In this document: positions 5,923 to 49,073 of the stretch, piece by piece
Layout: every line of letters begins with the position of its first letter
How positions within the stretch are numbered: the first letter of the stretch is position 1
Origin: Iphione sp. A-MEVVRFRX5
Taxonomy: Eukaryota
Reading direction: 5' to 3'
NCBI GenBank assembly: GCA_976226885.1
Contig: OZ320319.1
Span: forward strand, 67,270,001 to 67,334,000
DNA length: 64,000 nt
Made by a program: the position numbers and the translations under genes
The notes under the pieces: generated by a model
Databases searched by the model: none
Seen by the model: the letters and a program-made list of their open reading frames with translations, nothing else
What the model was told of the DNA's origin: nothing

Positions 5923-5959
5923 CCTTGTGTCAGTGCCGTTCTCTAGTCAATCCTTTTTT

Positions 5960-6775: not shown

Positions 6776-8599
6776 AGCAAATTGAAAAGATGTCTGCCTG
6801 CTCCAAAATTTGTATGCAAAGCGTTGTTATGGAATATGATAATCAAGGTGATGGTATATGTAGCTAGGTGACAATAACAATGCTCTGTTTACGACATATA
6901 TTGATATAATTACATTATATAAATATATATCATTTGCCAATCGAACAATATTGGGTTTGATGCTCACCCATTATAGGGACTTTATTCATTGTCTATAAGG
7001 CAACCATCCCTCCTGCATGCCACGTTGTATTTTTATAAGGTTTAAAAGTAATATTGTTTCTGACTACAGTGGATGAAATGATATGCAATTTCAAACTTTC
7101 TTCAACCTTTTGTGTGTCCCACTTTCACATTGAGGTCCTAGCACTTTACGTATCTGCAATGCTGTAGAAACATTGTTTAAATGGAAAGATGAATTGACTG
7201 GTTTTCATTGCTTTTTTGTAAGGCATGAATAGTGCCAGCATAACTGGTCAAGGTGTTACACATGAAAACAGCTACTTTGCTGTCCAAATCACATTTTCAC
7301 GTGATTAAACTCAATAGGTTGGTAACGTGTGCTTCTTGGATATAAGCCTTTTGTAGTTTCAGCCGGTGAAGGATCCAGCTCAGAAAAATACAACATTCCA
7401 TTGAAAAGTTTCGATCAGAAACAACTGAAAATTAGTTCCAATCGAAAGAAATATTAACAATTTCAGCAAAGTGACCCCCCATACTACCATGAGTGAATAA
7501 GGATAGCAGGCTGGCTGCAGAGGAAAACGAAACAGAAAAACCTTTTGATTTTTTCTCTGTTTTCTCCACATTATGTTTATTGCCAACACTAATTGAGTAT
7601 AATAACAAAATGTGCAGCCAGGAGATGAGTGAACCTGAAAAATATGAAATATAGTGGACAAAAGGATCAAAGCACTACATTCGAAATTTCATTGCATTAG
7701 GCCTCTTGATTAGAATCATCTAAAGCGCATGGATAAAATACTACTCGTGTCAAATGTAATGTATTAGAACGTCATTCATAGCAAAACTCATGTCAGCATC
7801 GTCTCACATAGACTTTGAGATACGTTTGTTATATATTCAATTTTACACTTTTATGTACTTTTGTCATAACACATCAGTTACCAATTATTTGTATTGAATT
7901 TGTATGACACTGCTTGTAATAGATGATTTTAGAGGTACATACATTTCGGAATGTGAACAAAGAACCCCCTGAAAACCAGCAAATTAAAAGAATTGTGTAA
8001 AATTTACAGACAACTTTACAACTTAAGTCGCTGATATATATTATACCTCTGTTCCATTATTCTCCAAACTATTTAATCTTATAGCTTGGAAAGAGCAGAT
8101 ATGATCTCCGCAGTGATGTAAAAGTCAAGAAACCTGTATTCTTGAACAGCAAGGTTCAAGCAGATATATTACAAAAATGACAGCTTTATATTGTTCATTT
8201 GGACCAAAGAAAATTGTTAAGATCCTGTCAACCATCCATGGATCAGAGTCAGGTCAAGTGTCTAGGAATGTGAGAAATGCTGCTCCTGTCAAGTGTAAAT
8301 GCATGCAAATAACGTCATGCTTATATGGTCACTTACACTAATATTATGGGAGTAGTTGACCTCACTCTTGCTTAAGCCTTGGAAGAAAGAGAATAAACAA
8401 ACCTATCAAAATCCTTTAGCACATGCTTGACTTGTTGCAATTAAATGCTCAAACCCTATCATTTTGTAGCAGAGAAACATGTTTATCTTTGAGTTTTTAC
8501 TGGTTATCAAAGCTCAACTCAATTAAACACTCGACCCCAGCACTATATCCAAGTCAGTAAGATATCATCTGTTAACTGGAATTGATGTATGCCTCTGAC

Positions 8600-18959: not shown

Positions 18960-19560
18960 TTACTGTGCAGGTTTTCCCAGCTTTGCCTATAGTGGAGGTC
19001 CGAAACTTATACACATACACACTATAGAACTCCACTGATCATAGCATTCAGGCAGTATTAGACTATCTTAGAATGTTGGGGTTAGCTTAGTAATGTTTTT
19101 AGTTTCATTGTAGTCTGGTTGTATTAGACAATAAACATGGGGAATTTTGTGAACGTGATTCAATAATAAGTCAAAATAGCACTGTGGCTAAAGTGCCCAA
19201 CTGTCATAATTAAAACTAATTACTTTTGGTGTCTGACAAGATCACACGGTCGAAACCATATAAATATGTCCTTTCCCTTGTGTGGAGACAAAAAAATAGT
19301 CAATCTTAAACAAATGCCAATATGTTTTCACTGACATCACAATGGACATGGAAGTGTTACCTGAACAACATATATTGACATCCCTCCTCTCCCTGACAAC
19401 TGGGTTCTATATCCCAACTGTCTCTCACATCAGAGACACACTTGACACGGTTGCACCACGTCGTACGATCTAGCCACGCCTATATCAAATCCTAAAGTGG
19501 GAAGCCTGATCTTTTTCAAAGTAAACGTTTCTGTCGGTTTCAGGAAGCCTTTTGCCAGTG
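18960..19560 (-). mobile_element. Highly decayed LINE apurinic endonuclease remnant
   Basis: Minus-strand fragments in the expected order: FDIGVARS (approx. DILGISE), GRGGMSIYV (approx. GGGVAIYV), IFIWFRP (approx. IYRPP), IMTVGHFS (approx. IIVGDFN). Confidence 0.4.
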
Positions 19561-19909
19561 TTTCACTACAGCGTTCTATAAACATTTAAAACATTTCTCC
19601 TTCTAACATTTTATACCTGTTAATACTTTATACATGTTGACCTAATTTTACTCATTACATGATTGTGCAGAAAAGTGATTTTCAAGTGAATAAAAGTATG
19701 ACTGGTGTATCTACACCTCGCATTCACACCTATGAGAACTAAGTCCAAATGTGGTATATGAGCGGCAACTGCTCCTGTGCCAAAAGTAGTGATTGCCTAT
19801 CGAGAGGGACAGCATAATAGAGAAAAAAGCTTTTGCGAATGATGATAGGAGGACATGAAAGGAGATAGCCACGTGGCTGAATGTTCAGTTCTTGGTCGTC
19901 TAGGCACTT

Positions 19910-20169
19910 ACCAGTGTCAATAGATTTTCCACTTGCTTCCTTCGTTCCCATGGAATGAGGTTACGCCCATCGTGGGCCCTTGGTAAGGTGCAATGATTCT
20001 TTTTGGCAATTGGTGACGGATTGATTATATAAAAGTGCGACATTCTCGGCAATATCGCTCCGTGTCCGACAAATGCAGCAGTGATAAAAAGAATGAGGAC
20101 CAGCGCTCCAAGAATGACACGTTGATTAGCACGTAAAAAGTGGAGGGGAACTTGTTTCGATGATGCCAT
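19910..20169 (-). CDS. First coding exon of a putative type II membrane protein (family undetermined)
   Basis: Acceptor CTTTAG just before GAGATGG (good Kozak context). Short basic N-terminus, hydrophobic helix VILGALVLILFITAAFVG, a stem region, then a strong donor CTG|GTAAGT at ~19909. A candidate next exon begins at 19796 after a pyrimidine tract + AG. Later exons were not identified. Confidence 0.5.
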
Positions 20170-22149
20170 CTCTTGATCTAAAGCGAAGCGGAAAAAGCTT
20201 ATTTAAACTTTATTCTCCAGTATCTAATATTCCCACTTCGGAAAGGTCAGCCATGGATAGATTAATCGAATATTTTGTTTTTGTTATTCTGGGAATTCAT
20301 TTTGGAGAGGGGGGACTTAGCACTAGCAACATGCTTTTCTTCGATTAGCATTAGTTTTTGACTATGTTGACAAATATTTGGTATACATATCAGGTTTTCA
20401 CTGAATATAGTTCGTAAACTCTTGCCACGTTTACTCAAATCATATTGAAACAAACTACACTGCTTTTGTGCATTTTCGCCTCGAGTATATGTTCAACCAT
20501 CCAAGGACATATTGTACAATACAACTGAGAAAGGATATGGCATGGCATGAACACTATGAACCGATGATCCATGATCAGTACATGGGCATACTGTGACCTG
20601 TATATATTCTTTCCCACAGATTAATTAAAATAAGCTCATTGGTCATCGTCCAAAGTGCTGTGCCAGTTCGTAAATACAGACCAACTTCATAGTGTCGTGT
20701 ACACACCGGTAAATGGCACGCACAACGGGGATTCGGGTGCATAGTCTTGGCTGAAACATGCTAGAATGAGCCTGTACGCACACATGTATGTATACATATA
20801 TATGTGCTCACTCCCATTTGTCCTTCCAACCGACACTCCGTCTCTTTCTGTCTCATTAAGCTTTCCTTTTCTGCTTTGTTAACTTTTATCTCCCATTTAC
20901 ATAATGATGTCAGTACTTACATTTTCCTGTATTTTATGATGCTTTATCTTCTGCAGGAGTTGTCGTCGGGATTTTAGGCCGCAAATAGTAAATCCTCGGA
21001 TACTTTGCACGATAGCCCTGCTCCCCATTCGAAAGAAAACGTGTATGTGACGAAATCTCATTCGTTATTTCATTGTGATACAGGTTTTACCTTCTCGATC
21101 AGTTGAATCAAGAGTTGTCTCTCTGTCACCTATGACACCAAGCACTGCATGAAGCAAAGTGGACAGCTATGTACAGTCTCCTCCGTTGGTTTTCAGATAC
21201 ATGTATGTGGGTGCCTCTATATCGAGGCCACCAGGCAGTGAGGACCATGCGGGCCAAGCGAGCAGCATCAAGTAGCCCTGAACCAGCACTGAGTACGACC
21301 ACCCGTAGGTATGTGTTTATAATTGCGGGTCAGTGGGCGGGGAAATGGTCTTGTGGGTTTAAGCATTACCTCCCGATTTCTGTCTGTAGCTCCATTTTGG
21401 CTTTGTGACTTCCGTTTTCTGACAACGGACGGAATATACAGTTACATGTAAAGTTCAACGACGCGTAGGTTGCATGCGATTCTTTGAAGTGTACGGAGAA
21501 AGGCAGAAGGTGGCTTGACCATCGAACACGTATCTCAGTGCAGAGCTTCACGACACAGAAGCCCTACCAATCCTGTTGATCATTGGAAGTAGTAAAAGGT
21601 AGATTCAAGTAGAATGTTTTACCATGCAAAGTAATCCATACCGACTTGGCCATTCCCGAATCACTGAGACATACAGGGGAGCATGTCCAAACTTGATCTA
21701 GGGCATGTTTTTTTATTTGTTTACGGTTTGCAGGGATAAAGTAGTATACATACTTACTTCTTTAGATAGCAGTCAAGCTTCAAATGCAGGCTACATTCCA
21801 AAGTGAATAATCCTAGACGTTTTGAGAATTGTAGTTTTATATCTATAATCCTGAACAAAATGGCAGATAAGTTATAAGCGGCTGTGCTTGGAGTGATATG
21901 GCTTTGGCAGTATATTGTGCTGTGGTACATGTTTCATGACATCCACATGCTAATGCCTTTTGGATCCTCTCAAGTCTGTAGTATATATGTATACATGTAA
22001 GTATCTTTGCATGCCTTGATGAGTTTGGTGACCTATATGTGAAGAGTCTGTGTAGCATCAGACAAACTAGAGAATCAAAACATGTAGGCATAATTACCAT
22101 AAACCACACCTTGACCTTGCTGAATACACTGTTCACTTAAGCAATTCAT

Positions 22150-23218
22150 TATGTTAACAACCAACAATGGTAAAATCGGACATTTTTGTCTGATGGAACT
22201 TTGTGATCATGTATAATAATTAATTTTAAAGATATTCTGTCCAATTTTTCCAGATAAGCCCAGAATATGGTATTCTTCTGAGGTGTGATAACAAATTACA
22301 CTATGTTAAGAGGACAGCCTGTGAAATTGATCACATGACTTTCCTCATTTGCATAAATTAGCATTAGCAGCTTTTCTTTAGCACTACACAAATTTCTTAT
22401 GATGAAATCAAGCCATTGTATTGTTGAAATAAAATGAAGATTTGCAATCTATTTAGAAATCATCCTATAGAATTTGAGTTGATGTTTGATTTTAAGCAAC
22501 TTTGTCAGACACTGCACTCTTTTTTATTGAATTAGATAGAATACCAGTTACATTTCCAGAAGCAATGGGCATATATATAATGAGAGGTGTTACATAGTGC
22601 CTTGCAATAGGAACACACATTATATCTCTCCAATCTCTTGGAAAGATGTTTAATATTCTTACAAAAATTACTTAGCAAGAGTTAAACTGATTAATAAGAA
22701 TTGAGATCTATCTAAGATGATTGCTAAATTATTTAATTTGTTACCATGGCAACATCCCAAAACTGCTGATTCAATTTCAGTGATGCAGCTGATGCACATG
22801 ATTGTCCATTTTTTTGGTAATGGATGCAAAATGGCCAGTCATGATACAATATAATTATTTTATGGACAATAACAAATAAGGTATCAAAAGATTGCAAATC
22901 ACTTACTGAACATTTGCTCAATAGTAAGCTTTTCTCTAGAAGCAATATTTATAACTCTTTCTTGACATATAATGTAAATAAGTGGAAATTTCTCATTTTT
23001 TTCTGAAAAAATTGCCTATTCTCAGGGTTATCCTGTCACTATGGTAACTAAATTATAGGAACAAAATTAATGCTCAATCAAAGTACAATTCCCAAGGTTT
23101 ACAATGATGTATGATATGATATCAATTCTATCTGCATACTCTTGTTAGGAACACAGGTAATCTTTTACCTCCATTCCCAGAGGCTAAAACATGATTTTTC
23201 CTGTCGTTAAAGGGTTAA
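22150..23218. mobile_element. Possible piggyBac-like non-autonomous element; only the right end is clear
   Basis: Right end GTCGTTAAAGGG|TTAA at 23203-23218. Internal motifs (GATCACATGAC, CCATGGCAAC/CTATGGTAAC) are shared with the element at 42301-43414. The left boundary is uncertain. Confidence 0.35.
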
Positions 23219-23372
23219 AGCCTGGCTAATTATGCACACAACCATCCAGGCATATCGTAAGTAGCCAATGAAGGTGAAGTATCCCTCTAACCAATTTTAT
23301 TATTCAATTAAAGTAGCAACGGTTATGCATTTCCAGTGTACACCACTGCAGTCCTTACTGTAACGTCCAACA

Positions 23373-24640
23373 ATGGACTTCTTGGATATTCCCAATTTTG
23401 AAATAGAACTGGATCTATGTACCCAGGCAGATGAAATGGAGAGAGATTATCTCTCCCAAACTCAAAATTCAAGCCAAAAGGAAGATTTGCGCCAGTTCAA
23501 TCCGAACATGAATTTAAGGCCATATTGCCTCACGCATTCCCAGGAATACCCAACAGTCGTCCAACTGGGCACATAATATATATCGAGAGTGGCACACCTG
23601 GAGAAATGGGCATAGTAAATCCCATTTGGAGAAGAACTGGCCTGTCCCTGCTCTGACGACTGACAAAGTGGATCTGCTGGACTATTGGCTTGCATGTTTT
23701 GTGACTGAAATCCGAAAAAAAGATCATAAAGATTACCCCCAGGAACGTTTATTTTCATATTCTACTACATTGTGGGTAGGGGGGACAACAAACTAATTTC
23801 TAATTTGGTGATTTTTGACATATTTTACAGGCACTCTCACCAACATAGCTGCATCCATTCAGAGGTAAATGTGGGACATTCTTGGGAGAGCAGATATATG
23901 GCTCCTCAAAAAAGATGATATGCATTTCAAGCTATTTCGGGATGCTTTTGATGCTCATCACAAAGTCTTGATAGCACAGGGCATTGGATCACAACACACC
24001 AGAGCTGATCCTATATCCATCGAGGAGGGGGCAGAACTATGGGAGAGTGGAGTTATTGGTTTCCACTCTGCACAATCTCTCTTCTATGGATGTTACTACT
24101 ATAACTGCAAAATCTTTGGATTTCGTGCTTGTGATGAACATGTTAATTTCATGGTTGAGCAATTTTCATTTGGAACAGAGAGAGACGGTTCACAATACTT
24201 ACAGTTAAGGGGCGTTCGGCCAAAACAATCACTGTGAAATTCAACTCTTAATGTCATCCAAGGATTGTAAAGCACTATGGCCAGCCAGAAAACAAGCGTT
24301 GTTTTCTCAAGTTATTTTGCAAGTATCTCGAATGTGTCACTCCTGCAGGCCGCTTCTATTGACGCCCTCTAGCCAATGTCAATGGGCAGATCATTTTTAG
24401 CATTCATCATGTGGGCATCAACAAGCTATCTCAATACATGGCCAATATGTTCCAGACAGCTGGTATTGATATGCAGGGAAAAAATATTAGTGGTCACTCT
24501 GGAAAGGTGACATGCTGCACGACCCTATACGATCAACAGTTTGATGAATAAGCGATCACCTATTGCAGCGGTCACCACTCCAATGCAGTTCGTCTCTGCA
24601 AGAGGCCTTCATTGGATTTGGAAAAACGTATTAGTGATTC
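23373..24640 (+). mobile_element. Crypton-type DNA transposon (DUF3504/ZMYM-like tyrosine recombinase), pseudogenised, with one intron
   Basis: LDYWLACFVTEIRKKD.KDYP (23677-23739), then an intron ending TTTTACAG at 23830, then TLTNIAASIQR*, GFRACDEH, KRCFLKLFCKYL..FY*RPL and GHSGKVTCCTTLY..FDE*AI..SGHHSNAVRLCKR (24490-24604). Several stops and frameshifts. Confidence 0.85.
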
Positions 24641-25597
24641 ACTTCAACCCCCACCTCCAAAAACAAACAAAACAGCCACGAACACTCAATCTCCTCAGAC
24701 AAGCACACATGCACCCCCTACCACACACTCGCAGTCAAGTCCCATTCAGATGGAAAAGCACGATTCTCCTCCACAGAATATTATGGCAGTCACCCCAATC
24801 ACTCCACACACTACAAATCAAAACGTTCTACCCACTCCAACAAATGCCACAAACACAAACACTGATATGTCTCTCTCACCAGCTCAAGGTACTCTCGAAC
24901 TAGCATCACTGATTGACAGGAGAATGTTTATGGTGGTCATTCCCAGTGATGTCTATCCAGTGGCCATTATAAAAGATGGAAAAAAGGTTGTGGTTCAAAT
25001 TAGAATTTTTTTACAGCAAATCCAACATGTACACTTTCCAAGTATTTACTTTTGTCAGTTAGACTTTATAATTTTGTATTTCCATAATTATTTTCACTCT
25101 GTTATATGTCAATGTGATTTACCTAGTTCCCCTTGCTTTAGTTTATTTCATTGTCTAGGGACCGAATTATTATGTTTGTCAATTTATATATATTTCATTG
25201 TTTAACTTTTTATATTTCATTAATACTATTTTCCAACGAACCTTTAATAAATGTTAATACATCATTTCATTCTTTATTTTTTATTTCTACCATTAAAATA
25301 ATGCTAACACCCTAACATTACCCTCCCTATTATGTAACTAATCCAACATGACAACCACCTAGATGCGTTCACAGGTGGCTAGGGTAAGTATTTTCGCAGT
25401 TTGCTAGGTGTGCAGTACACGAAATAAATGCACTGCATGGTCATATAGGCTTAAAGAAGAGAAAAGATGGCAGCCGTGCTTTAAATCAATAAGGACCATG
25501 ATACCATACTTCCTGCATGCAACAGAGCACAGTTATGGTAAGTGGTATACACAAGTACGAATATCATTCAATAACTACAAAATCTTACCTTATACCA

Positions 25598-25954
25598 TAG
25601 GCCCCCCAAAAAATAGGCATGTGTCTGGTAACAACCGGCCAAAAACCTAGGTGGGGAGGGGGGTATCTTTTTTTTTTTTTAGATTTTTTGTAGTTTCTTC
25701 CTCTGGTTTTCAATAACAATAAAGACAATATCAATAATCTTTACCAATCTGTATGAGTTTTACAGTATTTTAGTTAATTTCTATGGATTTAGTTGTTTTT
25801 CTACTGAATTTACTAAAAACATGTGTTGTGAAAACACATATCTAAGGAAATTCAGCCCTAGAAACTCTTTGGAGCCAAAACATTTTTAGGTAGGGTAAGG
25901 TTTTACTAGGTAGGGGTGGGTTACCAGAAACACACCTATTTCTTTTTGGCCTTA
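25598..25954. mobile_element. ~357-bp TIR element (unclassified MITE), full copy
   Basis: Left TAGGCCCCCCAAAAAATAGGCATGTGTCTGGTAAC versus rc right TAAGGCCAAAAAGAAATAGGTGTGTTTCTGGTAAC. Homologous copies at 46412-46545 and 53589-53850. Confidence 0.8.
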
Positions 25955-26331
25955 GCCAGTCACACCATTTTAAAATTGCTAATGAGGTAGTAAGTGAAAG
26001 TGTATGGGAGAGACGTTTGATGGTTACACAATAGGACACTCTTCCCCCTTATGAGCTATTCTGTATAAAGAAAAAGTTTCAGACTATAACCATGTCCTAA
26101 TCTTAGAAGATTCTTGTTTCCATCAAAAAAGTAAGAATTTGCATGGGGAGTTTGGCTCCGAGGAAACTAAACAGCAATGGGAGGGCCCACAGCTCCAAGG
26201 AACATAGTATCAAGCAAACTGCTCATTACTCTTAACTAGGTGGCATGTGTTCTTCAGGAACATCAACATCACTGTAGGCAAAGGGGAAGATCCAATGGAA
26301 CAAAAACATCAACTATGGTCTACCATCAGAA

Positions 26332-26824
26332 TACAGGGGACTGCGGATGACGTCATAGAATGGATATACTTGCAAAGTAGTCTGTAAGAGGCAAAATTTC
26401 AACAGCGTGGAACAGGCCTTTAGGCGGAGTCAAGCTAACATGCAGGACATCAAGCTGAGGTGCTTTAGATTAGTCTTGCCCCTAACCTAAAGACAATACG
26501 ACGGCTGAGCAAACGATTATTGTGACTGATGAATGGAAGTACAACCGACTTGACAAAATGAAACAGATTGTCCTATGTAAATTCACCCAGAATCCATTGC
26601 TGGCTGACAACCTGGTACTAATTGGCAGAAAGAAATTCGTCCAAGCGACGAGCAACCCGTCATGGGGGACAGGAGTTAGTCTAGGTTGTGTGGAAGTCAG
26701 GGCAGACACATTCACTGGACATTCTCATACGGGCATGACCCTGGCGAACATTCAGACAGAACTAGAGGAATTACTCTCTGGCGAATCCGGTGACAAAGCT
26801 ACACCAAGTGTGATAAAGTATTAA
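26332..26824 (+). pseudogene. NADAR (YbiA-like) domain, decayed
   Basis: YRG....*NGYTCKV..QNFNSVEQAF (26332-26421), a frameshift, then W..RLDKMKQIVLCKFTQNPLLADNL..IGRKKFVQAT.NPSWGTG...FTG.SHTGMTLANI. This matches the NADAR pattern F.S.EH.YQ / W..M..KF.QN..L..TG...EA...WG.G / G.N.LG..LM. Confidence 0.8.
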
Positions 26825-27480
26825 TTTCGTCGATTAGCCACCTCAGACATCATTCTCAACACATAATCTCGGAAACACTCGGCTGTATGTTCAAGCGTAC
26901 CCAGGTGCAATATGCTCCTCAGACTTGCTCACAAGGTTTCTAAGTAGAGAGGTGACTACGCCAGCTACACAGTGTTGGTGCTGTGTAGTATAATCAACGT
27001 TCCGAGAATCATTCACAAAGACACAACGAGGCGGCTACCAATGAAGATAATGCGAAGATTCTCTAACACTGACAGAGCAACGCATCAGATTAGCGGAGAA
27101 CTATACGTAAGATACTACACACTCTGAAGATCTATTCGGGAGCGCGGATAGTATTTTCGACCTTCTTCGGGCTGGACATACAAACCTATAACGTTCACAA
27201 TGGAGGCTCAATGCCGGAAGTTCTTCAGTCTGCAGATCAGTTCATCCTGGAAGAAATAGTTCACAGGATGAATGGTACTATCGTCGATCTGAGCGAGTGA
27301 AACGGCTCGACTACTCCTTGGGGTGCAAGGATCGTTCACTACAGGAGAAATGGTAAATGGAGGGATCGATACAACAAAGCTGGAGATGGCTGCTACCTGG
27401 ACTCGGACGGGCTTGTCGAGCTAGCTAAAAAGCTGAATGACTGGTGGAGAGAATGCCCTACCAAGAACCAGTACCTTTGA
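26815..27480 (+). pseudogene. SGNH/GDSL hydrolase-like domain, decayed, directly downstream of and apparently fused to NADAR
   Basis: KVLI..(D)SHLRH (block I, degenerate), VQAYPGA (block II), TVLVLCSIIN (block III-like), ARIVFSTFFGLD..TYN, TPWGARIVH, YNK.GDGCYLD..GL.ELAKKL (DGxH-like, His lost). Frameshifts and one TGA. Confidence 0.65.
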
Positions 27481-30320
27481 GGTTTCGTCTCCAGTGCAAG
27501 CAGTGGTAGATGTCCCATTTGGGATAGGCCGTCCACCGAGGGGAGCTCTATGGCTGAGTCACTCGTTTTACCACAGCTAGCGGGCGCACTAACGACATCC
27601 ACTGTTTCATATACCTGTAACCAACAGTACATGCACTAATGACTAATTGACAGTCTGACTCCAGCTGGTTAGGTAGAATCAACCACCCCTGTCATCTTTG
27701 GTTGAAGGAAGTAACCACGCTTACTATAGTATAGCAACGCCATGCTGATGAATGGAAGTACATGTATTACATACAAACTCCGTTCAATATATATGAATTA
27801 TTGACAGGATCGTACCGAGTCGTCCGCATAATTTATGAGCTAAAGTTGACAACTTCTATATTTACCATTAGCTGGAGCTAGTATTGTCGACCCTAACCTT
27901 AGCATTAGGTTTAGAAGCTTAAGTCCCTGAGCATGTAGTATGACATTTTAGACTGACTGATTCTCACTGTCTCCTTGACATGTACTTAATATTGTTAACA
28001 AACCACAACTACTGCTGATCGCCTTATGCATCGAGAATAATCAATTGCCAGCCAATGTATTGTCTGCATGAGGGCCTTTTCTTATGCATACTACACTCAT
28101 CTGCGAGGTTTTAGGGCCTTTTGTACACAACAGCTTGTTTTTTTTCCTTTGCTTAACTTCCTGTGGAGACTGCTATACCTATTTCTGTACAATAGCTGCC
28201 CAACCATCAACCTCATAGAGATGTATGACTAAATGTCTTACTACGAAAGACATGCAGTCTTATACCATGCCTTGATCAATAGGATAGAGAATGGCATTGT
28301 TCTGTTACAGGAACGTGGTTGGATAACGATGTCCCAGACGCCTACGTCGAATGTACCAACTACACCCTATATCGCCACATAGTGAAAAAAGTTAACAACT
28401 CAAGTAAAGTAAGTAAGGGCAGCGGCATCATTATGTTCCCAAGGAAGTGAAAATGATTCAAAATCAAAACTCAAATTCAGGGGATGTTGAGGCTATCTGG
28501 CTAGAATTATTGATTGCCTGGCACAGGCAAGATCCTTCTAATAATGCTAACTTGGTTTACCTAATATATTTGCTACGTTAAGTATTAGTTAACAATGAAG
28601 ACAAAAAACCTACCAACTGACCCTGTGTTTTTTCAGTTTGTCAGCGGAAACACAGTTCTTTTTCTATATGCCTAAGGCGAGATTTCCGTGTCTGGTTTTG
28701 TAAAATGTATCCTTGACTTTGTGTATAGGGTTGACTGTTTCATGACCATGAACTACTCCGTGTGTCTGTGTCCATGTGTCCAATGTCCAAAAAAATGTTC
28801 ATATATTTTCCCATACACACAGACCCCATATATGATTAACAAAAGGACTGTCTAAGACTGCCGCAACCCTTCTACATGGATATATCCCATCTGCAAGTGT
28901 CCCTGAATGTCCAGGAAATTGACCACAACCCCCAAACATTTCCTGTATACAGGATACAAACTATGCACATGGAAAACTTGTCTAACGCGGTATTTCAATG
29001 CACATGGGTTTTGCATTTACAAGTTGTCCAATTGCATCTATTTTAAAATAAATGTATGCATGGATGCATGTTGTGTGGACACACATGTGGGTCCAGATAG
29101 AGCAGTAATGTATACGCTCGATCTGGACCCATGTGCAGGTCAATACCTAGCCCGCATACATGGAAATACCGCTTAAGGGTCAGGTTTGAAAATTAGCTTG
29201 GAAAAACAGGTCTGTCAACTTTGTAGGAGTCTACTCTTTCGTTAGTTGGAATATGAATGAGAAAATCAAGAAATGGTTCAATATGCCCAAGTGAGCATTT
29301 ATTGCCAAGAGTTGTCAAAAAAAATATTGTAAATATTAGTAACAAAATGTTAAATGTCTTTATTGAGACAAAAAAAATGATTGCCATTATAAATAGACTG
29401 AATGACCTAACAAAGGCAAAAGTTCAGAGATAAAGTGTGCGCGCTGTATGGCATCAAGTTGGTATGAATGCTTTGATCGTCAATTGTTGACGGTGTTTAC
29501 AAAAGATAGTCCTTTAGAAGCAACCCCGTATCCAACGGGGTATCGTCCGATACCGCCCTCAAAATTCCCTACATACACACTTGAATAGAGATCGTCACGC
29601 CTGAGCTATTGGGGGTATCGTCCGATATCCCCCTCAAAACCTCCTGGCTATGGGCCTGAAAAGGCATCATGTTTATAATTTGTACCCATATTGCGTGTGT
29701 GTATGGTGTTGGTTGAATATAAATAGAATATATAGGCATATATCGTTAGGACAACGAGGTAATGTACATGCTGCGAAGGACGCTTCACATAAATAATAGG
29801 CTTGCACTAATGTGACGGGGCAACCGTGCTTCTGTCTGGTATCTACATCTGTGTGCAAAGGGGATGCGGCGACTGCGCCCAACGTCAGGAATCAGCAGAT
29901 GTGGACGTAAACGATACGCTCAGATGCTAGCCTGCTCAGCACCTGCTCGCAATATAACTCCTCCGGGTCAGCTCAGAGAAGCGCAAACAAAGGCAAATAG
30001 CGAGCATCCTCCACAGTGGTTTTGCGATACCATGAATAGGGAAAAAACGGAAGAAGTGTTCAAATCCCAAATTTAGAAATTATTTATTGACATTTCAACG
30101 CGACAAATGTGTAAACATATGTAGAGTCTGCGATCAGAAATATTTCAGTCCTTTCAGTCCTAATCTTAACACAAATGTAATCACCATGTCTACGTCGCAA
30201 ATTACATCAAATTATGTACCATTAACATTTAATGATCTTCTTTCACGGTGGCCTCGATTAATTGCACCGTATCCCTCTGCAAATCATATATGTAAAAAGT
30301 AAAATTGTGCATGCAATATG

Positions 30321-30482
30321 TTAGACGCCAACGTTGTCCTTAATCCACTGACGGAAGTAGGTTACTCTTGTGTACACTGACGGCAGGAGGGGGTGGCAAC
30401 CGTTTGGGCCCCATGATGTGACACCCGCCAGAACAAAATAGCCGCCCCTATTCTCGCAGACAAGAGGCCCACCACTGTCTCC
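30321..30482 (-). CDS. Protease exon 5
   Basis: TTTTCTTCAACAG|GDSGGPLVC...VTSWG..C....PSVYTRV..WI..NVGV*. Confidence 0.95.
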
Positions 30483-33400
30483 CTGTTGAAGAAAATCCAG
30501 AAGTGGTCCTAAGACTTTTTTCAGAGCGAAAATGAAAACCGCAAAGGAAGGGCTGAATGGAGTAATAGTCATGACATGAAAAATGTGCAAATAATTCAAA
30601 TTAATTGATTTTGTTCACATCTCAACAAGAGAGGTGAAACGATGGAAAATACCAACAGTTTCTCATGCCATATGCGATTATATATAATTATATAGTTGGC
30701 CCGCACCAGATGTACAGTTGTTCACACTTCATGATTTCATTAAGTATGACAGCAGATGTCCCTGTGACAAGTGGTGCGAAACATGTAGATCGCAGCTGCT
30801 AGAGTACCTTGTATAGCTAATTAATAAGCAGCAAAATAATAAACCAACCACCATTAAAGGCACCTAGCCATCAGTTGGATACTTCACTCATTTTATGAAT
30901 TCAAACTTTGGCTGCCTATTCATGAATTGAGTTAAAGGCACAATGCTTGTTTCATTAATTTAACTAATCCACACCAAAAGCCTTTGACGTTTAGATCTTG
31001 TGCAAAGATGGATGAATGAAGCCTCTTTTTAGCAGAAATTAAGTATGGGAGTCACTGAGAGTTTGACCCATATTCACAAATAACAGTGCGTGTTAATGGT
31101 CCCCCATTATTGGCAATTAGTTTTATATTCTACCTCCCATGCCATCGGGATGTCATCATGCTTTGCCAATACAATCGACACCTGCAGAGCAACCACCAAG
31201 GGGACTTGAGGAATTTGGTCACTTCTGCAATAGGGTTGGCCCTGGCGATGGATGTTCGCTTTCTCTCACCTAAGTGGAAGTAATAATTATTCCTTAAAAA
31301 TGCCTATGTAATTGAAGTTAAATCACACATTAGACAATGAATATCCTTTCAATGTTTTGAGCTTGGACATGTGAGGGGTTGTGGTGACATCTCTGGTCGC
31401 ACCTTAAAAGGTGAATATCTCTTCATAGCTTGGGCATGGATATCTAAGGCTGAATTTATCTTTTTATTTCATTTATTTTTCCAGGAAGTTGTACATTGTG
31501 GCAGACACACGTTGTTGGATCTTTAACATCCAACATCGTGGTCTGACTAGGTGATATGATGGATACTAATCAAACAAGATGTATATTGGATGTCAGATGT
31601 CAGATTCTGGAGGTATTGCAAAATAGTTGTCTATTGTATAATAACTGTCTATTACAACATTTCAGTATTGCAAAATCATGATATTGCACAAGCCACTATG
31701 GCTCTGTATGTATATAAAGGGCACATTTTTTTCTGAACAGATATTCTCTCTTTGCACCTTGAGAGAGTTACACCTAGCAGAAGTCCAGCAGTGGAGTGAA
31801 CAAGATTTTGCTGTGTTGAAGTTGCTTTGTCTTGGATCCCTGCCTTTCCGGCCTGTTGGTTAGAGTTCATCAAATGCTCGTATGTTATGACATGAAGATT
31901 TACCCTGATCTCATTACATTAAGTAGCATCACTAGATGATAATACATAATGAAGTAGAATGAATGATTGGACACCAATACCTGGCTTTAAAATACTGTAA
32001 GTTGGAAGATAGGTAGTAAAAGCAATTAAGTACAGACGTCGGTAGTAAAAGCAATTAAGTACAGACAACTTCGAATCTCATCGGTGAAGTACATAATTGT
32101 CTGGAAAATTGCCTTTACAGACACCACCTTTACAGTCATCACCACAGTGTTCACCAACTTTCCAGGTCTCAGCTCTATACCTTTCATATTTTCACCACAG
32201 TGTTCACCAACTTTCCAGGTCTCAGCTCTATACCTTTCATATTTTACTGCATTATTGTCTGCTTTAAACAAATTATATTTCCGATACGCCTAACGTTGAC
32301 ATAAAGGTTATTCTAAATAACAATGGAAACATAGTGCACTGATGTACAATACCTTTCAAAGTGAAGTCTTTCTCACTTGCAGTGACACTAGTCCCATTTC
32401 CTTGTAGATTCTATCTAGAGTGACCTTGTTACCAACCCTATAACCCAGTGCAATCCTGCAAGCTCTATTCAACAGAACTTCAATTTTATAGAAACTCTGG
32501 CTTTTCCATTGATTGAGCATGATGCCTCCATAGTCACATATTAGCAGAATCAGTATCTTTACCAGAATAACTATTGTATTCTGTCTATTAAGTGTCTTAT
32601 TTTTAGAAAACATCCTGATCTTCTGTGCAGTTTTTCCCATCTGGATAACTAGGTGCCGGTGGAACTCACGCTTATCATCAACAATGTACCCTAGGTATCT
32701 GTACACTGAAACCACTTCATTAGAGTGTCCATTTAGGACAAGTGACAGATGTCCAACATTATCTTTTCCCCTCTTTTTTAGGATGACATGCACTGCCTTG
32801 GTTTTTGAGCTATTCATAATGATTCTGTTTATAAGACACACAGAGCAATTCTATTCATCTGCCTAGAGGTGGGATTGGATCTCCTATAATGAGTTGCCAG
32901 CATACACAATTGCCATATCATCTACATACAGAAATGCATGTGAGTATGTTAGTATTTCAGCTATAGCATTTATCATAACTAGGAATAGAGTTGGCCCAAG
33001 GGCAGAGCCTTGTGGCATCCTAGAGATGAGTTCAGCATAACCAAACAATTTCCCGTTTACCCTGGTGCGTTATTTTTTTATTAGGTAGCTGGCAAACCAT
33101 TTCCAGATTTTCACCCCTACTTGCTGGGGTTTGTTAAATGCTTGGGAAAAATCAAAGAAAACAACCCCTGCAATTTTGGCATTGTTAGTTTTTTTTTATG
33201 TAGCAGACCAGTTAATGCAGCAGCTGCTTGAGCAGTGCTTCCATTCTTGCATAAGACAAAGCAGATCACAGGATATTATTATATTCCAGGTACTCGGTAA
33301 GTTGTTTGCATATTACCTGCTCCAGAAGTTTGAAGCCATGCCAAGCACACTAACAGGGTGATAATTTGACACTTTTTCTCTTGCACACCTTTTGAAAATC

Positions 33401-36400
33401 AGTGTCACAGTAGGTAGTTTCATATCTTTAGGGAAGATATTAGTGCATATTGAGCAATTTATAAGTATGGATACCCTGTCAATGAGTGGAAGGAAGGCAT
33501 CCTTCCATACTCATTTTCACCATGCACAGTCCAGAAGGTATTCTATCCTTCAAGGTTGAAACTAGCTTTATAACCTCCTTGTATGTTTTAGTTGTAACAT
33601 AGTATAGGTGCTACAGGGATCATGTGATGCCTTGTCCATTTTCTTCTCCAGGTTTACCCCTACATTCAGATAGTAATTATTAATGTAACATAGCAGCATG
33701 TCACACTCAACTGGCCCTCCTGTGTCATCGTTTAGAATCAGTGGTTTGTTAGTACAGTATTTTGTTTCTTTCTGGACCAATATTGTAGATTAGTTCGTGG
33801 TACCACCAGCATAAGGATAAGTAAGACTACCTGATGCACCCTGTACTATTACAGTTCATAGTAAAACCAATATAAGGCTAAGTCAGACTGTTCCTGATGC
33901 ACTCTGTACTAAAACAGTTCATGGTTCTGCCAGCATAAGGCTAAGGAAGACTGTACCTGATGCTCTCTGTATTAAAAGGGTTCGTGGTATCACCAGTGTA
34001 AGGTTAGGTGAGTCTGAATCTGATGCAATCTGAGCCAGCTTGTGGTACCACCAACAACTGTTAATGAGGGATTACACTTAATGAACTAAGGGCCCCTGCT
34101 TGTGGCACCACCAATGATGTATAGGTTAAAATTTCCACTTGGTGCCCTAACCTAGCTAGAAGATGACATTGGGCCCTGGAGATCCAGGCACCTTCTACTT
34201 TGTAACTAGCTGTCTCTAATCTGATTGGTGGAAAGCACTAACACAAGTCAGTTTGTAACCACTTTGTTCTTTCATTCATTACATTGCTGCTATGACACCT
34301 GGCCACCTGGCCTTTGGACTGGCTATAAATATGGACCCTGTGTGGCCAATGAACCACTCTGCACTTGGATACCATTGTGGAACTTGTCTCTTCAGGGGAG
34401 TCTATAGGAACACATATCCACTTGGACTATCACAGGGGAGGACTTACTGGTTGGGCTTAGCCAAGGATTGCATGGAGTAACTCAAGCCACAACTGTAGTG
34501 GATATAGCTGGAATTACCAAGTGGGAGTATTAACACACATGCTACACTAAGATTAACTAGGTCAGGACTAGGAATACAATAGCTGGATTTACCCAGTGGA
34601 ATACAAACATGCATATTACAATATGATTTAGGATTGATGTTGGAGGATTGTACCTTATTTTTCACATAATCCCCTTTGGCTCCTCTGATCGTTTGGCTAG
34701 TCTTCTTTTAGCTATTCTAGCCTGCAATAGGTCCTCAGGAGTTTTTATTGCTCTTGTCCACTGAAAGTATGCATCCCTTCCCCTAATTAGCTTCTTTATA
34801 TCAGTGTTAAACCAGCTATATGATCACCCAGGAAAAGTATTCCTTATCCTAAAAGGATACAGTTTACCCACTACCTTTGTGATACACAGCTTTGAGGAAA
34901 TGCCATTTTAGATTATTATTGGTCCAGAATGAAAATGTCAGTTTATATTAGAGTAAGCTCCAACTTTAACCACTATAACCCCCTCCCTCCAGTCAGTGGG
35001 CTTTTTGGTGAAGAACTGGCAGGGACCATTGAGATTTGGCTACCCCTAAGGGTGAAAAACGTCGTTTTGTACTAAATATTGTAGTCTCCCCCCAAGAGTC
35101 GGTTGCCCCGGGCAGTTGGTTGTCCCTTTTATCCATTTTGGAGAAAATACACTAAGAATTGTTCTATTCTGACCAAGGTTGGTCTCTCCTATGAGTTCGT
35201 CTCCCCTAGAAGTTGGTAGCTAACTGAGGTTTGCCTGCAATTGCAGCACATGAAGCAAGGATTCCCATCTAGAACAGGTTGGAAAACAATTGATTCAGGG
35301 CTGATAACAACACTAAACAATGGTGTGAAACGTTTTTCAGCACACTGAACATCATCTGGTCACCAAATTGTCCTCCATAGTAAGGTTTGTTTCTACCTAC
35401 TGCGGGAGGAGAGGTATAACTTTACAACATGCAGGTGAACAATTTCACATCAACAAACATCATGCCTTCCATTTGTTCAATCTCACCATACATACTCTGG
35501 AAGATAATAATGCTCTCATTGGACAAATCTGTGGATAACCGATCATCTCCTTTCTTGTTGGCCTGCTTTCCATCTTGTATTCCTCCTATCTGCTAGTAAG
35601 ACTGATGACCCATAGTGTCTCCAGAGTTGAACACCCTTCAATTAGATGCAGGTCGTAAAACATCTACTGTGCAGCTTGCAACTGCAGTCTTCATGCTAGT
35701 TCATATTAAAAATATTTAAGCTTCATAAAAAGGACCATGCCTAATGCTCCCACTTACAGGTCCACTGAGCACATGTTTTGCTACTTAATCAAATATGTTG
35801 ATGTAGAGTACTATGTCAATCAACAATGCCAAGGAAATTGAGAACTATATAACATATTGTTGCATAGGTGAACTGTGTGGGGGGCAGGTTGTGCATAGTG
35901 TGTGCAGGTCAAGGTGTGCTAAGTGCATGCATAGCAGTACATGCAGGGCAGTGTGTGGAGGACAGTGCGTGTGGGGCAGGTGTAAGTGTGGCATTTTGTG
36001 CAGAGTGCATGTGGGGCAAGTATGTGTAGGGCAAGTGCATGTGGGCAAATGCAGCGCAGTGCATGTGGGGCAGGTTGTGCTTGATAGCTCCACACCAGAG
36101 ACTTTATAAGAGTGCTTGGTGAAGGAACCCAGTCAGTCTACTGTTTGTTGTTGGATCATGCACGTCAAGCTGTACTTTTGGAATAAACACCTCTTAAACT
36201 TTACTCTGGAATCATGAGTCTTCGTAGTGGGTGACTACATAACAATATCAAAAAAGAAAATAAAATCTGACTCTTTTAAATGGGAAAAACCAACACTCCC
36301 CCCAAAACAACAAAAATCTTCAAACTAATTTTTTTTAAGTAAAGAAAAGTTTATATGATAGAGTGATGCGTCAGTATCAACACTAGAAATAAACATCTAG

Positions 36401-39400: not shown

Positions 39401-42400
39401 ATGGCATCACAAGAGGTCACAAACAAGGTGTACAGCACAAGGTATGTAGTACAAAAGTGTTTTCTGATTTTCGGTCCAAGGTAAGTACTTTACAAGTCAA
39501 CTTGACAGGGATTCAATAAAATGTATCTGCTAATGAATAATACGCAATGACTTCATCATGAAACCTTACCTGAATTACATGGACTTACATTACAAGAACC
39601 TTTCTTTCCCCACACGCCAATGCAGATGTGCCCATCGTTGATCTGCCCAGGCCAAGCATTCTTACAGTGCTCCTGGGTGTACACATCAATATGCGCTTCT
39701 TGCAATATCTCCGCCACCTTCCCATTTGGACCGGCTGTGATAAAGATAATTCAGTCAATTCAGCTTTAAGGTATAAATCTATGTACAAGTTTTATCTCGC
39801 ATTTGTATTGATAAATCCGATTTATTTCCACTAATGCTTATTCTAATAGATTTAACAGAGAGACTTGAGAATTTCTATTACAACTTCCCCTCCTATACAT
39901 TAGAGATTTTTCGATGACTAGATTACTACCATTCTGAACATACTTTCCGTGTAGCCCCATCCCGTTATCCAACAGTTGGGGTGGTTGGCAAAGTCATCAT
40001 CCTCCGCGAGTTTAATCGCTGCGATATGCGTTCCTTTAGCTGAGGAGTTCAACTTCATGAGGGCTATATCATTTGGTAGAGATCCGCTCCCACTGCCGTA
40101 TTTAGGGTGCTACTCGAAAAACAGAACTCTTTCTTGATTTCTGTCATACTCAAATGACAAGTAAAGGAAGATTTAGGATAACAACACTGGATAAACATGT
40201 ATGTAACGCATACATAGAGATAGGTATTTATTGATATATGTGATGGAGATAACTGACAGAAATAACACTGTTGTGATTAAAAGATATAGATACTATACAC
40301 ATGTGCATGTCTTGTACGTCCACCACCAGGGGAAGGATCTGGGCTATCTGCACCTTCCTGTCATTGGGGGTGAGGACTTATCCCCATGCACCTAGGCTAT
40401 ATGCAACCTGTTAGTTGGCATAAAACCTACACAAGCATACGCAAGCATACACAAGCATAAACAAGCATACACAAGGTGGCATAGTCCGGGAGGGCCAGAC
40501 CATCCCTGTTCGACCCGCACGTGCCCAGTGGCAGGTCTGGACCGTCTGCACACGTGGGGATAATTACACTACACATATAAAACGTTGTGCAAAAATAGTC
40601 CGGCCATGGGGAGAAACTCTCAAGGGTATGAGACTCTTTTAAAACCTTATAATATGTTTTCTTTCATTGGTTATTGTAATCTTTTTTAGAATAATAAATA
40701 CTACCATGTATTTTGAGGTAGAAAACAGAATATAAAAGAAAGCAGAGCAAAATTTGGGCACTACTTTTTCATTTGACTGTAGTAATACACCAAAAACCTT
40801 TGTGTTCAGTCAAGCAGAACTGAGGGTTGTAAATAGTAGATAAGGCAGGGTCAGGGAGAGAGAGTATGTGTGTGTGTCTGGAGGGGGGGCGGCGAAGGCG
40901 CTTGTTCAATTAAAATTGCCTTGTTTGGTCTAGCTGGGTAGTCCACCACAGGAAGGAGGTCTGGATAGTTTGCACACATAGGTATAGCACCTTACTTTTC
41001 ATAAAACATAAGAATGGGGACCTACACAATACAGTGGAGTCTCTTTTTCCGAACTCTGAGATTTCTGACCAAAACGCCCATTCGGACCATTTGAGCTTGG
41101 AACCAAAATTCTGCCTATAATCAATACAGGAGGTGATCAGTTTCCGACCAAATCGATTTCCTACCGATTTCAGCTTCCTACCAATCTATAAAAGATCAAT
41201 TGTGGTATATTTAACTATCAATTTAGGACCATTTGAACACTCTGATGTACCTCACGCCCTTGAGGAACTGGTTGGGAGAGGCCGGGGGCATCAATGGTTA
41301 CCACTCTGATGTCTCTCCTCTGTTAATGACTGAAAAAGTGGTCGAGAGAGGCCGGGGGCGTCAACGGCGACCTCTCTGATATTGAAAGGGATATTGTCTC
41401 CAGCCCAAACCCCCTACTCAATCGATTTCCGACCATTCTCGCCATTCCTACCGTTTGAGCTCGGAACAGAGTATATAGGGGTCGGAAATAGAGACTCCAC
41501 TGTAGTTAATCCATCTGCATCTTACCGATATAATGGAGGCTATACTATATGTCTGACCTCCTTTGCTTTGGAAGTTACTGCCAAAAAGTACGGAATATCT
41601 TCGCCTGTTGAAAAAATGGATTTATGATTACATAATAGTAATAAGCAGCCGCCTGAACTGGAATTGAAGGTAGATTGATCGGCCGTATCCTTCCTCCCAG
41701 TCTCGTGACATAAACGTGTCTTATTTCACTACTGCCTCCATCTCACATGACACAGACTGTCACCCCACCATTGTCACAGTCTTGACCCAAGCAGAAAAAT
41801 TGATCACAAATAGCTATTAACCATCGGAACAGAGTATATAGGGGTCGGAAATAGAGACTCCACTGTAGTTAATCCATCTGCATCTTACCGATATAATGGA
41901 GGCTATACTATATGTCTGACCTCCTTTGCTTTGGAAGTTACTGCCAAAAAGTACGGAATATCTTCGCCTGTTGAAAAAATGGATTTATGATTACATAATA
42001 GTAATAAGCAGCCGCCTGAACTGGAATTGAAGGTAGATTGATCGGCCGTATCCTTCCTCCCAGTCTCGTGACATAAACGTGTCTTATTTCACTACTGCCT
42101 CCATCTCACATGACACAGACTGTCACCCCACCATTGTCACAGTCTTGACCCAAGCAGAAAAATTGATCACGAATAGCTATTAACCATCGGCAACCTCATT
42201 TACCGCATGTCAGCGTGAGGGCCACACAGTTACCACTACGGTCTTGATATCAACAAAACATCCACACATCGGCCCTAGAAAGGTCACTCGTGGCTTTTAA
42301 CCCCTTCCTGATCACTCATAGGCTTATCCGCCCAATTGGGTGGATAAGCCTACAGATACATAAACAGAAATCTACATGAAATCTGGGCATTGTTTCTCCA

Positions 42401-45400: not shown

Positions 45401-48400
45401 GAATTAAAACACCCAATAACGCTTCACCAAAATAGTTGCCCCCTCCCTGTGTACTAGATGTTATATGCACCTGTAAGTAACTATAAATTATATGAATTCA
45501 TGTCTGGATCATAGGTATGAAAAAGATTGTTACATCACATTTCATCAGTAGCAAGTTCTGGCAACTTTCAAGGCTATGGTTTTGGCAATACGCAAGGTTA
45601 ATTTAATATGGGAAACTTACTGCAGGTGAGACTTTTGCCCTAGAAGCTTTTTTCCACGCATTTCATCTGGCAATAAACATTTAGCCATCTGTGATGTCGC
45701 TTTTCAAAAATAGAGATGAGCTCATGTCCGAGGCAAGAATTGTCGCTTTTTGTCCAAGGATATTGGTGCATCTTCAATGGATTTTCTTATTTTTGATGGT
45801 GCCTAATGGAAATGGTATTTCACAGGAATGTGCTGTAGCTGACATGGTGCAATCAAAAATGGTAATGGTGATATCAAGGAAATTTCAGTTTGATGGGCCG
45901 TTTGGAAGATATGTTTTCTATATATTTATGGCATGTATGATACTTTCTCCTATCTTTCTCTCTTTTTTCTTTCTCTTTTCCTAGTCCGCTCTTCCTCCCT
46001 GTCCCTCTCTTTCTTTTTTTTTATTCTCCCTCCCTTTCTCTCCCTAGGCATAGCCCGGTACTGTAGTCTTCTCCTGGTGAGAAAAACAGAAACTAATATA
46101 ACCCCTGGTGGAAAGGTGAGGAATAGGCAGTCCATTGATACAACCTACCTAAAGAAAATACTGCAGAGATACAGGCAAGGCAATAAATGATATTTTATTT
46201 TTGACGCACAAATTATGTATCAGTCATCATCTTTCCTAAAGATATTTCTAAATACATGTACAAATAAAATAAGTCATACATATTTCTAAAATCAGACCAC
46301 TGTAAGATGAAACTTCACTAAGCATGGACTACTTTCAGGAGACTTTTTTTTAAAAGGTAGTGTAAAATGCATGTACAAAGGAATAAACAAGGATGTTTCA
46401 TTCATCAACTATGAGGCCAAAAAAATGCATGTGTTTCTGGTTATGATCAGTTCAAAACCTAGGTAGGGAGGGGGGAATTTTTTTTTTTCAATCTTTTTTA
46501 GTTCCATCCTTTGGTTTTCAACAATCATAAAGACAATATGAAGGAGGCCTTGCATGGTCACTTACATCACTACATACCTTGCACATAGGGCACACAGACA
46601 AAGGGGCCTCTACCATGTGTGCAGATCAAAAAACACATGCAGGGATTCTGCACAAAATGCAACAGATGTTAGACAGGTGTTTCCATAAATATGGGTCATT
46701 CATACTGTCATATACATGTATATCATTTATATATATTTCATATAGGCCTAGTTATCATGTTGAATTATGTATCCAATTTACATACCGTTTGCATAAAAAA
46801 TGCACAATGTCCAATGATATGCCTCACTTTCCACAAAAAACCCACACAATTTCCAGAGATATGCCTCACTTCACACCAAAAAAAGCATAGTTTCCATGGA
46901 TATACCTCACTTTCCACCAAAAAAACACACTTTCCACCAAAATGCCTGTTTCGCTTCTTCTCTGTTACTTACTGACATTGTGAATTGCCTTCGATGTATG
47001 TTTTCACAGCCATGACAGTGTGTATTTTGGGGAACCATGAATCATGCAAGCACTGTTTTCTTACAGGTATATGCATACAGTATGTACAGTATGTTTCCAT
47101 TTACATACCACCATAATTTTGGATTGGAAAGGTTCCCATGTTTCATAGCCATGTGTGCATGTTTATGTTTCCTATAAAATGGAATGTCTTGAATGTAGAC
47201 AGCAAATTTTTGAGAGCGTCTCCCTACGGACACCCTCAAAGGGTAGGGTTTCAAGCCTCTGTGCTTATTTTTGCGCAAATTTGGGGCTGCATAAAGTCTT
47301 CAGAAGTCATTTTTAAAGGTAGAAATGAATAACCCATGTGGACAAGGTGTTGTCCTGTGAATTTGGGCTGCAGATGGGCCACAGAGATTGTTTTGGTACT
47401 TATACTTGAAAAAATCCATGTGAACCCTTATCCTCCAATTCAGTACTTTTAGGACTCTTACTTGTCTAATTCAGTACTTTTTGTACATTTACGCGGCAAA
47501 TTCAGTAATTTTTGGACTTTCACTCATCATATACAGTACTTTTAGGACTCTTAAACATCAAATTCAGCATTTTTAGGACTTTTACTCGTAAAATTCAATG
47601 ATAATGTATACACATCTCATACACTACTCAGTGATCTATAAGCAGGACACTTCTCAAATGCGGATGATTCAGTGAAGAACTGAGGATGTCCAGAATCAGG
47701 AAGCTTGACTGTATTTTACAGTCTACAGTATGTAAAATACACACATATGGCTAAGCTGCTGTTGAAATGTTTACTCATGTCTTAACACACTCCTGGTACT
47801 GCAGGTGTGTCTGTAAAGTACATGTGCATAGAAAGACCGCCTAATTACTCTCTCTCCGATGTCATGCACACATTCAAGCACAGGAAGCTCAGGCAGTTCA
47901 AGTGGTTCGACTCTCCTCAGGCATGCTGACTGGGAGCTAAGGTTAGTTAGGAATGAATTTGAGGAAAGCAGTACAAATGTTGGAAGACAGAGAGACAGTG
48001 ATACAGTGAGAAAAGCAATCAGACACATTCATTTATAGCTGACCTTAGCTAACACCTGACCAGAACTTGCCAATCAAAGGCCCTTTTGCAAACATCGCAG
48101 AGGGTAATTAAGGTGATAGCATCACTGAGCACAAAGTTAAAGCAAACGCACTTTGAGCAAAACTACATGTACCATGAAAATTGTTACACTACCTATATAA
48201 AACGTTGCCCGAAAGTAGTCCGGCCATGGGGAGGTGGTCTCCTAGGTGTGAGACTTCTCCTAAACCTCATGTTTTCTTTTCTCCTATATGTTATGTTACT
48301 CTTTTCAAGAATAATTGAAACTGCCACATGTTTTAAGGTAGAAAATTGAATATAAAAGAAAACTGAGCAAATTTCTGGCACTATTTCATTAGATTGTAGT

Positions 48401-49027: not shown

Positions 49028-49073
49028 GCCGCCGTCTTCGTAGGAGAAGGGTCCTCGTTCTCCTTTGGGACCA

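Follow-up and report, generated by a model that had tools for sequence, protein, structure and literature searches.

A decayed NADAR domain followed by a putative SGNH-fold esterase in Iphione DNA: candidate fragment of a retroelement accessory gene

NADAR and SGNH domains as cargo of selfish elements

NADAR domains are already on record as retroelement cargo, having been described in the Tx1 ORF1 of Crassostrea gigas and at the N-terminus of an Ectocarpus Gypsy Pol, with a role in retrotransposons that the same source calls unclear (PMC12477816). What NADARs do in animals is described as unknown (PMC11125620). In vitro, members of all NADAR subfamilies take G-ADPr off DNA and RNA, and a NADAR from a sponge does the same for C-ADPr (PMC12945103). 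CARP-1-like guanine ADP-ribosyltransferases are found mainly among bivalves, with further occurrences in cnidarians, sponges and other bilaterians (PMC12945103). NADAR or Macro domains also occur in RNA viruses of animals, where they are thought to counter host ADP-ribosylation (PMC9503650).

SGNH cargo has been published for LINEs, among them CR1 and RTEX, and for Penelope elements (PMC3905857, PMC4120745), for Ngaro elements (bioRxiv 10.1101/2021.08.05.455354) and for rotifer LTR/Athena elements, and is also reported on a Helitron (PMC4021074). The esterase of ZfL2-1, with catalytic positions S143, G165, N195 and H282, binds acidic phospholipids and has been proposed to target the ribonucleoprotein to membranes (PMC3905857).

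The locus described here, at 26332..27480 of the window (the whole 64-kb stretch of Iphione sp. DNA that was analysed), may bring both kinds of module together. Our leading interpretation, to which we give an even chance, is that it is a fragment of a retroelement accessory gene, either ORF1-like or an extra ORF, that encoded a NADAR followed by an SGNH-fold esterase in one protein. The initial annotation of this DNA had proposed the fusion as undescribed mobile-element cargo. For the NADAR this does not hold, as its carriage by transposable elements was already published (PMC12477816), whereas no paper on its fusion with an SGNH domain was found in a literature search outside whose scope lay most subscription journals and Repbase Reports, where it may be on record. 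Each module is already known on retroelements, and probably only the NADAR–esterase pairing would be new; if real, it would represent a new accessory-protein architecture.

A decayed NADAR gene and its relatives

The locus divides into three parts.

26332..26770 (+), decayed NADAR (YbiA-type) with a stop at 26356 and two -1 frameshifts (~26469, ~26516), from frameshift-aware profile alignment
26771..26811 (+), linker with a frame change, placed by three-frame translation and inference
26812..27480 (+), putative decayed SGNH/GDSL esterase with ~3 internal frameshifts, two stops and a terminal TGA, placed by eye

In-frame stops lie at 26356, 26945 and 27298, and the putative SGNH stretch terminates in a TGA at 27478–27480. 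After the NADAR come about four more frameshifts, which a reading by eye puts near 26800, 26866, 26925 and 27115. The frame is thus broken by stops and multiple shifts, as the initial annotation had it, although the frame changes needed after the NADAR exceed those that its reading implied; no intron is required to read the locus, in agreement with its description as lacking splice structure. The second domain has no ATG ahead of it in its frame, which favours a single fused ORF over two genes. Only one copy of the NADAR gene is present within the 64-kb window. The sense strand carries an A skew of +0.15 over 26050–27550, a region that spans both domains (3 of 250 windows are as extreme, and these may be the region itself), and such an A-rich sense strand is in keeping with, but not diagnostic of, a retroelement coding strand. 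The locus at 26332..27480 is a dead, intronless, transposon-type gene, and the present copy makes no protein.

The NADAR identification is secure. Pfam family PF08719 matches the C-terminal half with E 2.1e-7 and 31.8 bits, which for half a domain falls under the 35.1 cut-off. When aligned, with frameshifts allowed for, to a profile built on 103 full NADAR domains from relatives, the locus covered model positions 14–151 of 155 at 26359–26770 and scored 104.6 bits, against a maximum of 8.2 among 324 null windows. The region 26359–26770 is therefore a member of the NADAR superfamily (PF08719) by near-full-length sequence match, and the NADAR call, for which the initial annotation had itself proposed a frameshift-aware profile search, is borne out. 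An AF2 model of the C-terminal half (pLDDT 84) found 8BAU as its top PDB match (probability 1.0, TM 0.62, E 0.088), a check that is partly circular because that half was folded with a NADAR alignment. A weak Pfam match to leukocidin upstream (E 0.006–0.013, far under the cut-off) overlaps the NADAR frame and was rejected as chance on that ground.

Comparison with the Phytophthora NADAR 8BAU, for which residue roles are described (PMC11543638), shows that the locus has kept residues matching E43, W89, R93 and W133, while the K50 and E125 positions have become Gln and the D130 position Asn. Among the relatives, 91 of 103 domains have Lys or Arg at K50, and the same fraction (91/103) holds both for Glu at E125 and for Asp or Asn at D130. 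With the catalytic Glu and the basic K50 residue kept in these relatives, the transposon-type NADAR family looks enzymatically intact; the two Gln substitutions in the decayed copy lower the case for an active enzyme, not that for NADAR descent.

Two further sequence features lie close to the domain.

26140..26250, with traces to 26310 (+), possible second NADAR remnant (N-terminal half), weak, spotted by eye and then tested
27745..27762 (+), exact 18-nt copy of 26526–26543 (inside the NADAR), 265 nt past the terminal stop, with unrelated flanks

Against the full model, 12 of 324 null windows score as well as the upstream trace at 26140–26250; against an N-terminal-half model chosen afterwards, the counts are 3/324 and 0/324. 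This weak match to a NADAR start suggests that two NADARs may have stood in tandem in the parent. As a source of the trace, recent tandem duplication was rejected at the DNA level (240 of 300 shuffles were as good), and a search downstream of the locus found no second NADAR. The exact direct repeat of 26526–26543 at 27745–27762 has no counterpart in 300 shuffles (0/300).

The relatives number 111 proteins, 92 of them drawn from 1.84 billion cluster representatives and 19 added by profile search; the 92 match essentially through the C-terminal half of the locus NADAR. A coiled-coil/RRM-like region is common to 59 of the 64 relatives that have at least 60 residues before their first NADAR, Pfam recognizes only coiled-coil families in this upstream region (71 of the 92 relatives scanned), and the tails that follow the NADAR are low-complexity. 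We infer that this layout of coiled coil, RRM/CTD and NADAR is of the LINE ORF1 type, a label supported by the published NADAR in the C. gigas Tx1 ORF1. The initial reading of the locus as a dead copy of transposable-element type gains support accordingly, the NADAR being real and its relatives mostly ORF1-like proteins. A profile of the shared region, built from 31 of the 59, found no coiled coil or RRM before the locus NADAR (-0.8 and 2.6 bits).

The closest relatives share at most 37–39% identity with the locus NADAR. In a quick tree, from which three of the six near-identical repeats in one protein had been removed, this NADAR has a long branch and joins no well-supported group. In GTDB genomes, 120 pattern matches yielded no confirmed relative, none was found in phage DNA, and the window contains no Rfam families. 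The Atlas clusters for two relatives are NADAR-only and eukaryotic, their few recorded members being from Annelida.

Several of the relatives are of interest in their own right. Proteins P0005–P0113 form a large unnamed family of coiled-coil, RRM-like and NADAR proteins with conserved catalytic residues, and its intact members are better test subjects than the decayed locus. Protein P0004, of 4240 residues, contains seven NADAR domains within long acidic repeats, and in P0043 three NADARs are combined with a microbial PARG domain.

The stretch downstream of the NADAR

Read by eye in three frames, the 26812–27480 stretch presents a series of SGNH-like blocks. A strand ending in Ser 26836 resembles block I, with a damaged GDS motif; Gly 26904, within a YPGA motif, resembles that of block II; and a hydrophobic strand ending in Asn 26996 resembles block III, after which come a further strand and long helix-like segments. 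The last block reads D-G-C-Y, DxxH-like with Tyr 27394 at the His position, and is followed by a helix-like segment. From the Ser it is ~23 codons to the Gly and ~54 to the Asn, where ZfL2-1 has 22 and 52, whereas the distance from Ser to the last block is ~187 codons, against 139. The motif pattern is one that we take to resemble those of invertebrate transposon esterases. From the order and spacing of these motifs, as placed by eye, the second domain is probably an SGNH-fold esterase.

Statistical tests of this assignment gave mixed results. No Pfam family matched any frame piece of 26812–27480 at E<=1, and hmmsearch with a profile of 15 bacterial and phage SGNH proteins gave no match to the stretch. 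For the larger SGNH profile, 2 of 80 GTDB loci were set aside in advance, a further 12 had no anchor motifs, and redundancy trimming left 42 of 81 sequences. In global alignment, 12/174 and 20/174 null windows were as good as the stretch with the 15-protein profile, and 1/174 and 3/174 with the 42-protein profile, which places the latter scores in the top 1–2%. Frameshift-aware local alignment to the SGNH profiles was negative (119/170 and 120/170 nulls as good with the 42-protein profile), as was a block-chain test with the 15-protein profile (388/1048 and 169/1048 windows as good). In residue shuffles with the 42-protein profile, 64/1000, 293/1000 and 13/500 were as good (z 0.5–2.0), blocks I–II were misaligned, and an off-target DIRS stretch used as a control reached a z similar to that of the locus. 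The profiles were built from bacterial and phage proteins, not transposon-type esterases, to which such profiles are only remotely related; given also the heavy decay of the copy, the scores neither prove nor exclude an SGNH domain. In the initial annotation the NADAR ran directly into an SGNH-like domain: the first part stands, at 104.6 bits, but the second found no statistical confirmation and no Pfam family at the threshold given above.

Searches for an intact fusion were negative within their scope. An SGNH-like segment was found in 0 of the 111 NADAR relatives (best E 0.19), and an esterase in 0 of the 23 profile-search matches. When the 111 relatives were compared with the post-NADAR stretch, no credible match emerged, only five weak pairs with E 0.016–0.046 against a short target, and the same relatives compared with the whole window gave no match to that stretch at E<=0.5. 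Word-based homologue searches with an X-read middle piece returned 0 of 513 and 0 of 175 candidates. The main query was partly out of frame, which weakens these negatives, as intact fusions could have been missed. The co-occurrence of the two domains in intact homologues, by which the initial annotation proposed to check the fusion, was therefore seen in 0/111 proteins with a query that was itself partly out of frame.

The best-surviving alternative, which we nonetheless judge unlikely, is that the locus is a truncated NADAR-bearing ORF1 of the Tx1/L1 type, or something similar, and that the DNA downstream is unrelated and merely mimics SGNH motifs. The relatives, mostly ORF1-like and without an esterase, fit this alternative, the SGNH profile and shuffle scores are borderline at best, and the three frame changes that align blocks I–III were picked by eye. 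However, neither an RRM nor a coiled coil lies upstream of the NADAR, and the stretch that follows it is unlike the usual low-complexity tail: its hydrophobic fraction is 0.35, compared with 0.15–0.29 in 27 long ORF1-like tails, a difference that sets it apart from such tails and provides no separation from translated non-coding DNA. One frame of the stretch spans 125 codons with a single stop; this open frame, the strand skew that continues across the stretch, and the position of the larger-profile global SGNH scores among the top 1–2% of window nulls also speak against unrelated downstream DNA.

Carrier, proposed function and comparison with known systems

The following features of the window bear on the identity of the carrier.

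23376..25060 (+), decayed CryptonA-type tyrosine recombinase (DUF3504, QRICH1-like region), Pfam DUF3504 E 1.2e-9
25597..25955 (strand unassigned), MITE (non-autonomous DNA transposon) with terminal inverted repeats; related pieces at 46409–46543 and 53588–53855
400–2118, LINE RT
3938–6826 (-), decayed DIRS/Ngaro-type retrotransposon (gag-like, RT/RNase H remnants, tyrosine recombinase)
30342–30485 and 48818–49204 (-), host trypsin-like protease exons, the last and an early one, of a gene that spans ~19 kb

The initial annotation had seen neither reverse transcriptase nor integrase next to the locus. As regards reverse transcriptase it was correct: six-frame Pfam scans of 19000–26342 and 27481–32482 found no RT, endonuclease or viral gene. 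As regards integrase it was not, given the decayed DUF3504 tyrosine recombinase at 23376–25060. The scan of 27481–32482 matched only a trypsin exon on the opposite strand, and the locus may have been truncated. It lies ~3 kb beyond the last trypsin exon, on the opposite strand, and a decayed LINE at ~32350–35600 sits in an intron of the trypsin-like gene. The DIRS/Ngaro-type element has a 126-nt direct repeat (89%) at 3761–3886 and 6805–6930, and no SGNH ORF was seen beside it. Elsewhere in the window are a ricin-B-type beta-trefoil lectin exon at 52694–53035 (-) (Pfam E 4.8e-8) and, at 41461–42190, a 363-nt unit duplicated in tandem with a 99% match, which is either a recent duplication or an assembly artefact.

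The carrier of the NADAR–esterase gene may have been a non-LTR element with the gene as its ORF1-like component, a proposal we rate slightly below even; it is doubtful that it was another retroelement with the gene as a Ngaro- or Penelope-like extra ORF, and the hallmarks of Ngaro and DIRS elements (RT/RH and YR upstream, split direct or inverted terminal repeats) are absent from the locus.

A further alternative is that the NADAR–esterase gene was a second, cargo ORF of the CryptonA DNA transposon whose recombinase lies 1.3 kb upstream. The recombinase gene matches DUF3504, QRICH1 and Phage_integrase in Pfam, and is broken by ~4 stops and two or three frameshifts; by eye, it probably also has one decayed intron near 23742–23830, whose donor is damaged. 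The two genes are adjacent, on the same strand and both decayed, an additional C48 peptidase can be present in CryptonF/S elements (PMC3212892), and animal Cryptons are without terminal repeats, so that missing repeats are no objection. Yet the Crypton ORF is followed near 25250 by an AT-rich stretch with an AATAAA, as at the end of an element, and then by the MITE at 25597–25955. This is the only copy of its family with both ends, its terminal inverted repeats are ~25–35 nt and start GGCC after TA/TAA, and we take the family to be Harbinger-like. A search for terminal repeats joining the Crypton to the NADAR gene, or flanking the latter, found none, nor were shared termini found, and the window is full of unrelated transposons, among which such an adjacency is expected by chance. 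No extra ORF is described for animal CryptonA in the available text of PMC3212892, and on balance we consider this origin improbable.

Somewhat less probable again is an origin from a host NADAR gene, with the locus as its processed pseudogene or duplicate. Invertebrates widely have NADAR genes of their own (PMC11125620) and the window holds a single copy, but the locus NADAR falls outside the multi-NADAR, non-ORF1 proteins in the tree (with weak support), and neither a poly(A) tail nor an AATAAA follows the stop. Least probable of all is an endogenous viral fragment, whether from an RNA virus or from a large DNA virus: NADARs are recorded from nidoviruses, hepe-like and picorna-like viruses of invertebrates and from NCLDV (PMC9503650), an oyster nidovirus has NADAR/YbiA-like domains (PMC12377751) and viral NADARs are among the fold-search matches, but these last are generic NADARs with 12–28% identity, none at E<=0.001, the sequence relatives are ORF1-like proteins and not polyproteins, no viral family lies within ~5 kb on either side, and the available text of the oyster-virus paper contains no SGNH domain or esterase (PMC12377751).

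Under the retroelement accessory-gene interpretation, the protein of an active parent would travel with the ribonucleoprotein of the element. Its esterase might bind or trim membrane lipids and so position the particle, as proposed for ZfL2-1, while its NADAR would hydrolyse ADP-ribose from guanine (or cytidine) bases of the element RNA or cDNA; clearing such base adducts would keep reverse transcription unblocked. Given the fusion, a counter-defence role for the NADAR is conceivable, at rather less than an even chance, and the main alternative to it is RNA clean-up or processing, the latter having been suggested in PMC12477816. A bolder proposal, which seems to us unlikely, is that of a new invertebrate mobile-element family (possibly the adjacent Crypton, or a retroelement that has lost its enzymatic core at this locus) with a dedicated accessory protein, one or two NADARs joined to an SGNH esterase, that erases host-added ADP-ribose from the nucleic acid of the element itself. 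If true, it would imply that animals have an ADP-ribosylation-based defence against transposons, and that transposons counter it in a way that parallels the anti-DarTG1 NADARs of phages. As ORF1-like NADAR proteins are numerous and retain catalytic residues, the idea of an ADP-ribosylation eraser is directly testable on intact natural proteins; one dead copy with a putative second domain matters less than the family to which it points.

Among known systems, the likeness to the NADARs of viral polyproteins and to phage anti-DarTG1 NADARs is one of functional model only, that of a selfish element carrying an ADP-ribosylation eraser (PMC9503650; PMC11825919); unlike these, the locus is a genomic transposon remnant, known here from its sequence. 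With Ngaro elements that have a fourth, SGNH-hydrolase ORF it would share an accessory SGNH domain near the 3′ end of a retroelement (bioRxiv 10.1101/2021.08.05.455354), but upstream of it there is neither a gag nor RT/RH nor a DIRS-type YR, split direct repeats are missing, and the available Ngaro text mentions no NADAR.

In their order and spacing the first three SGNH-like blocks, with a block II of the YPGA type, are like those of the type IV esterase ORF1s of CR1, L2, RTEX and Penelope elements, of which ZfL2-1 is an example (PMC3905857, PMC4120745). This likeness is by eye and without statistical support, and unlike ZfL2-1 the locus has ~48 extra residues before the last block, a Tyr at the His position and, ahead of the putative esterase stretch, a NADAR in place of the coiled coil or zinc finger.

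As in Tx1 ORF1 and the Ectocarpus Gypsy element, a NADAR of the YbiA type appears here as retroelement cargo (PMC12477816), and the nearest relatives of the locus have the coiled coil, RRM-like region and NADAR expected of Tx1-type ORF1s. Unlike that of a Tx1 ORF1, the NADAR of the locus is neither preceded by a coiled coil or RRM nor followed by an ORF2; and where its Tx1-type relatives end in a low-complexity tail, the locus has in that place a globular, probably SGNH, domain.
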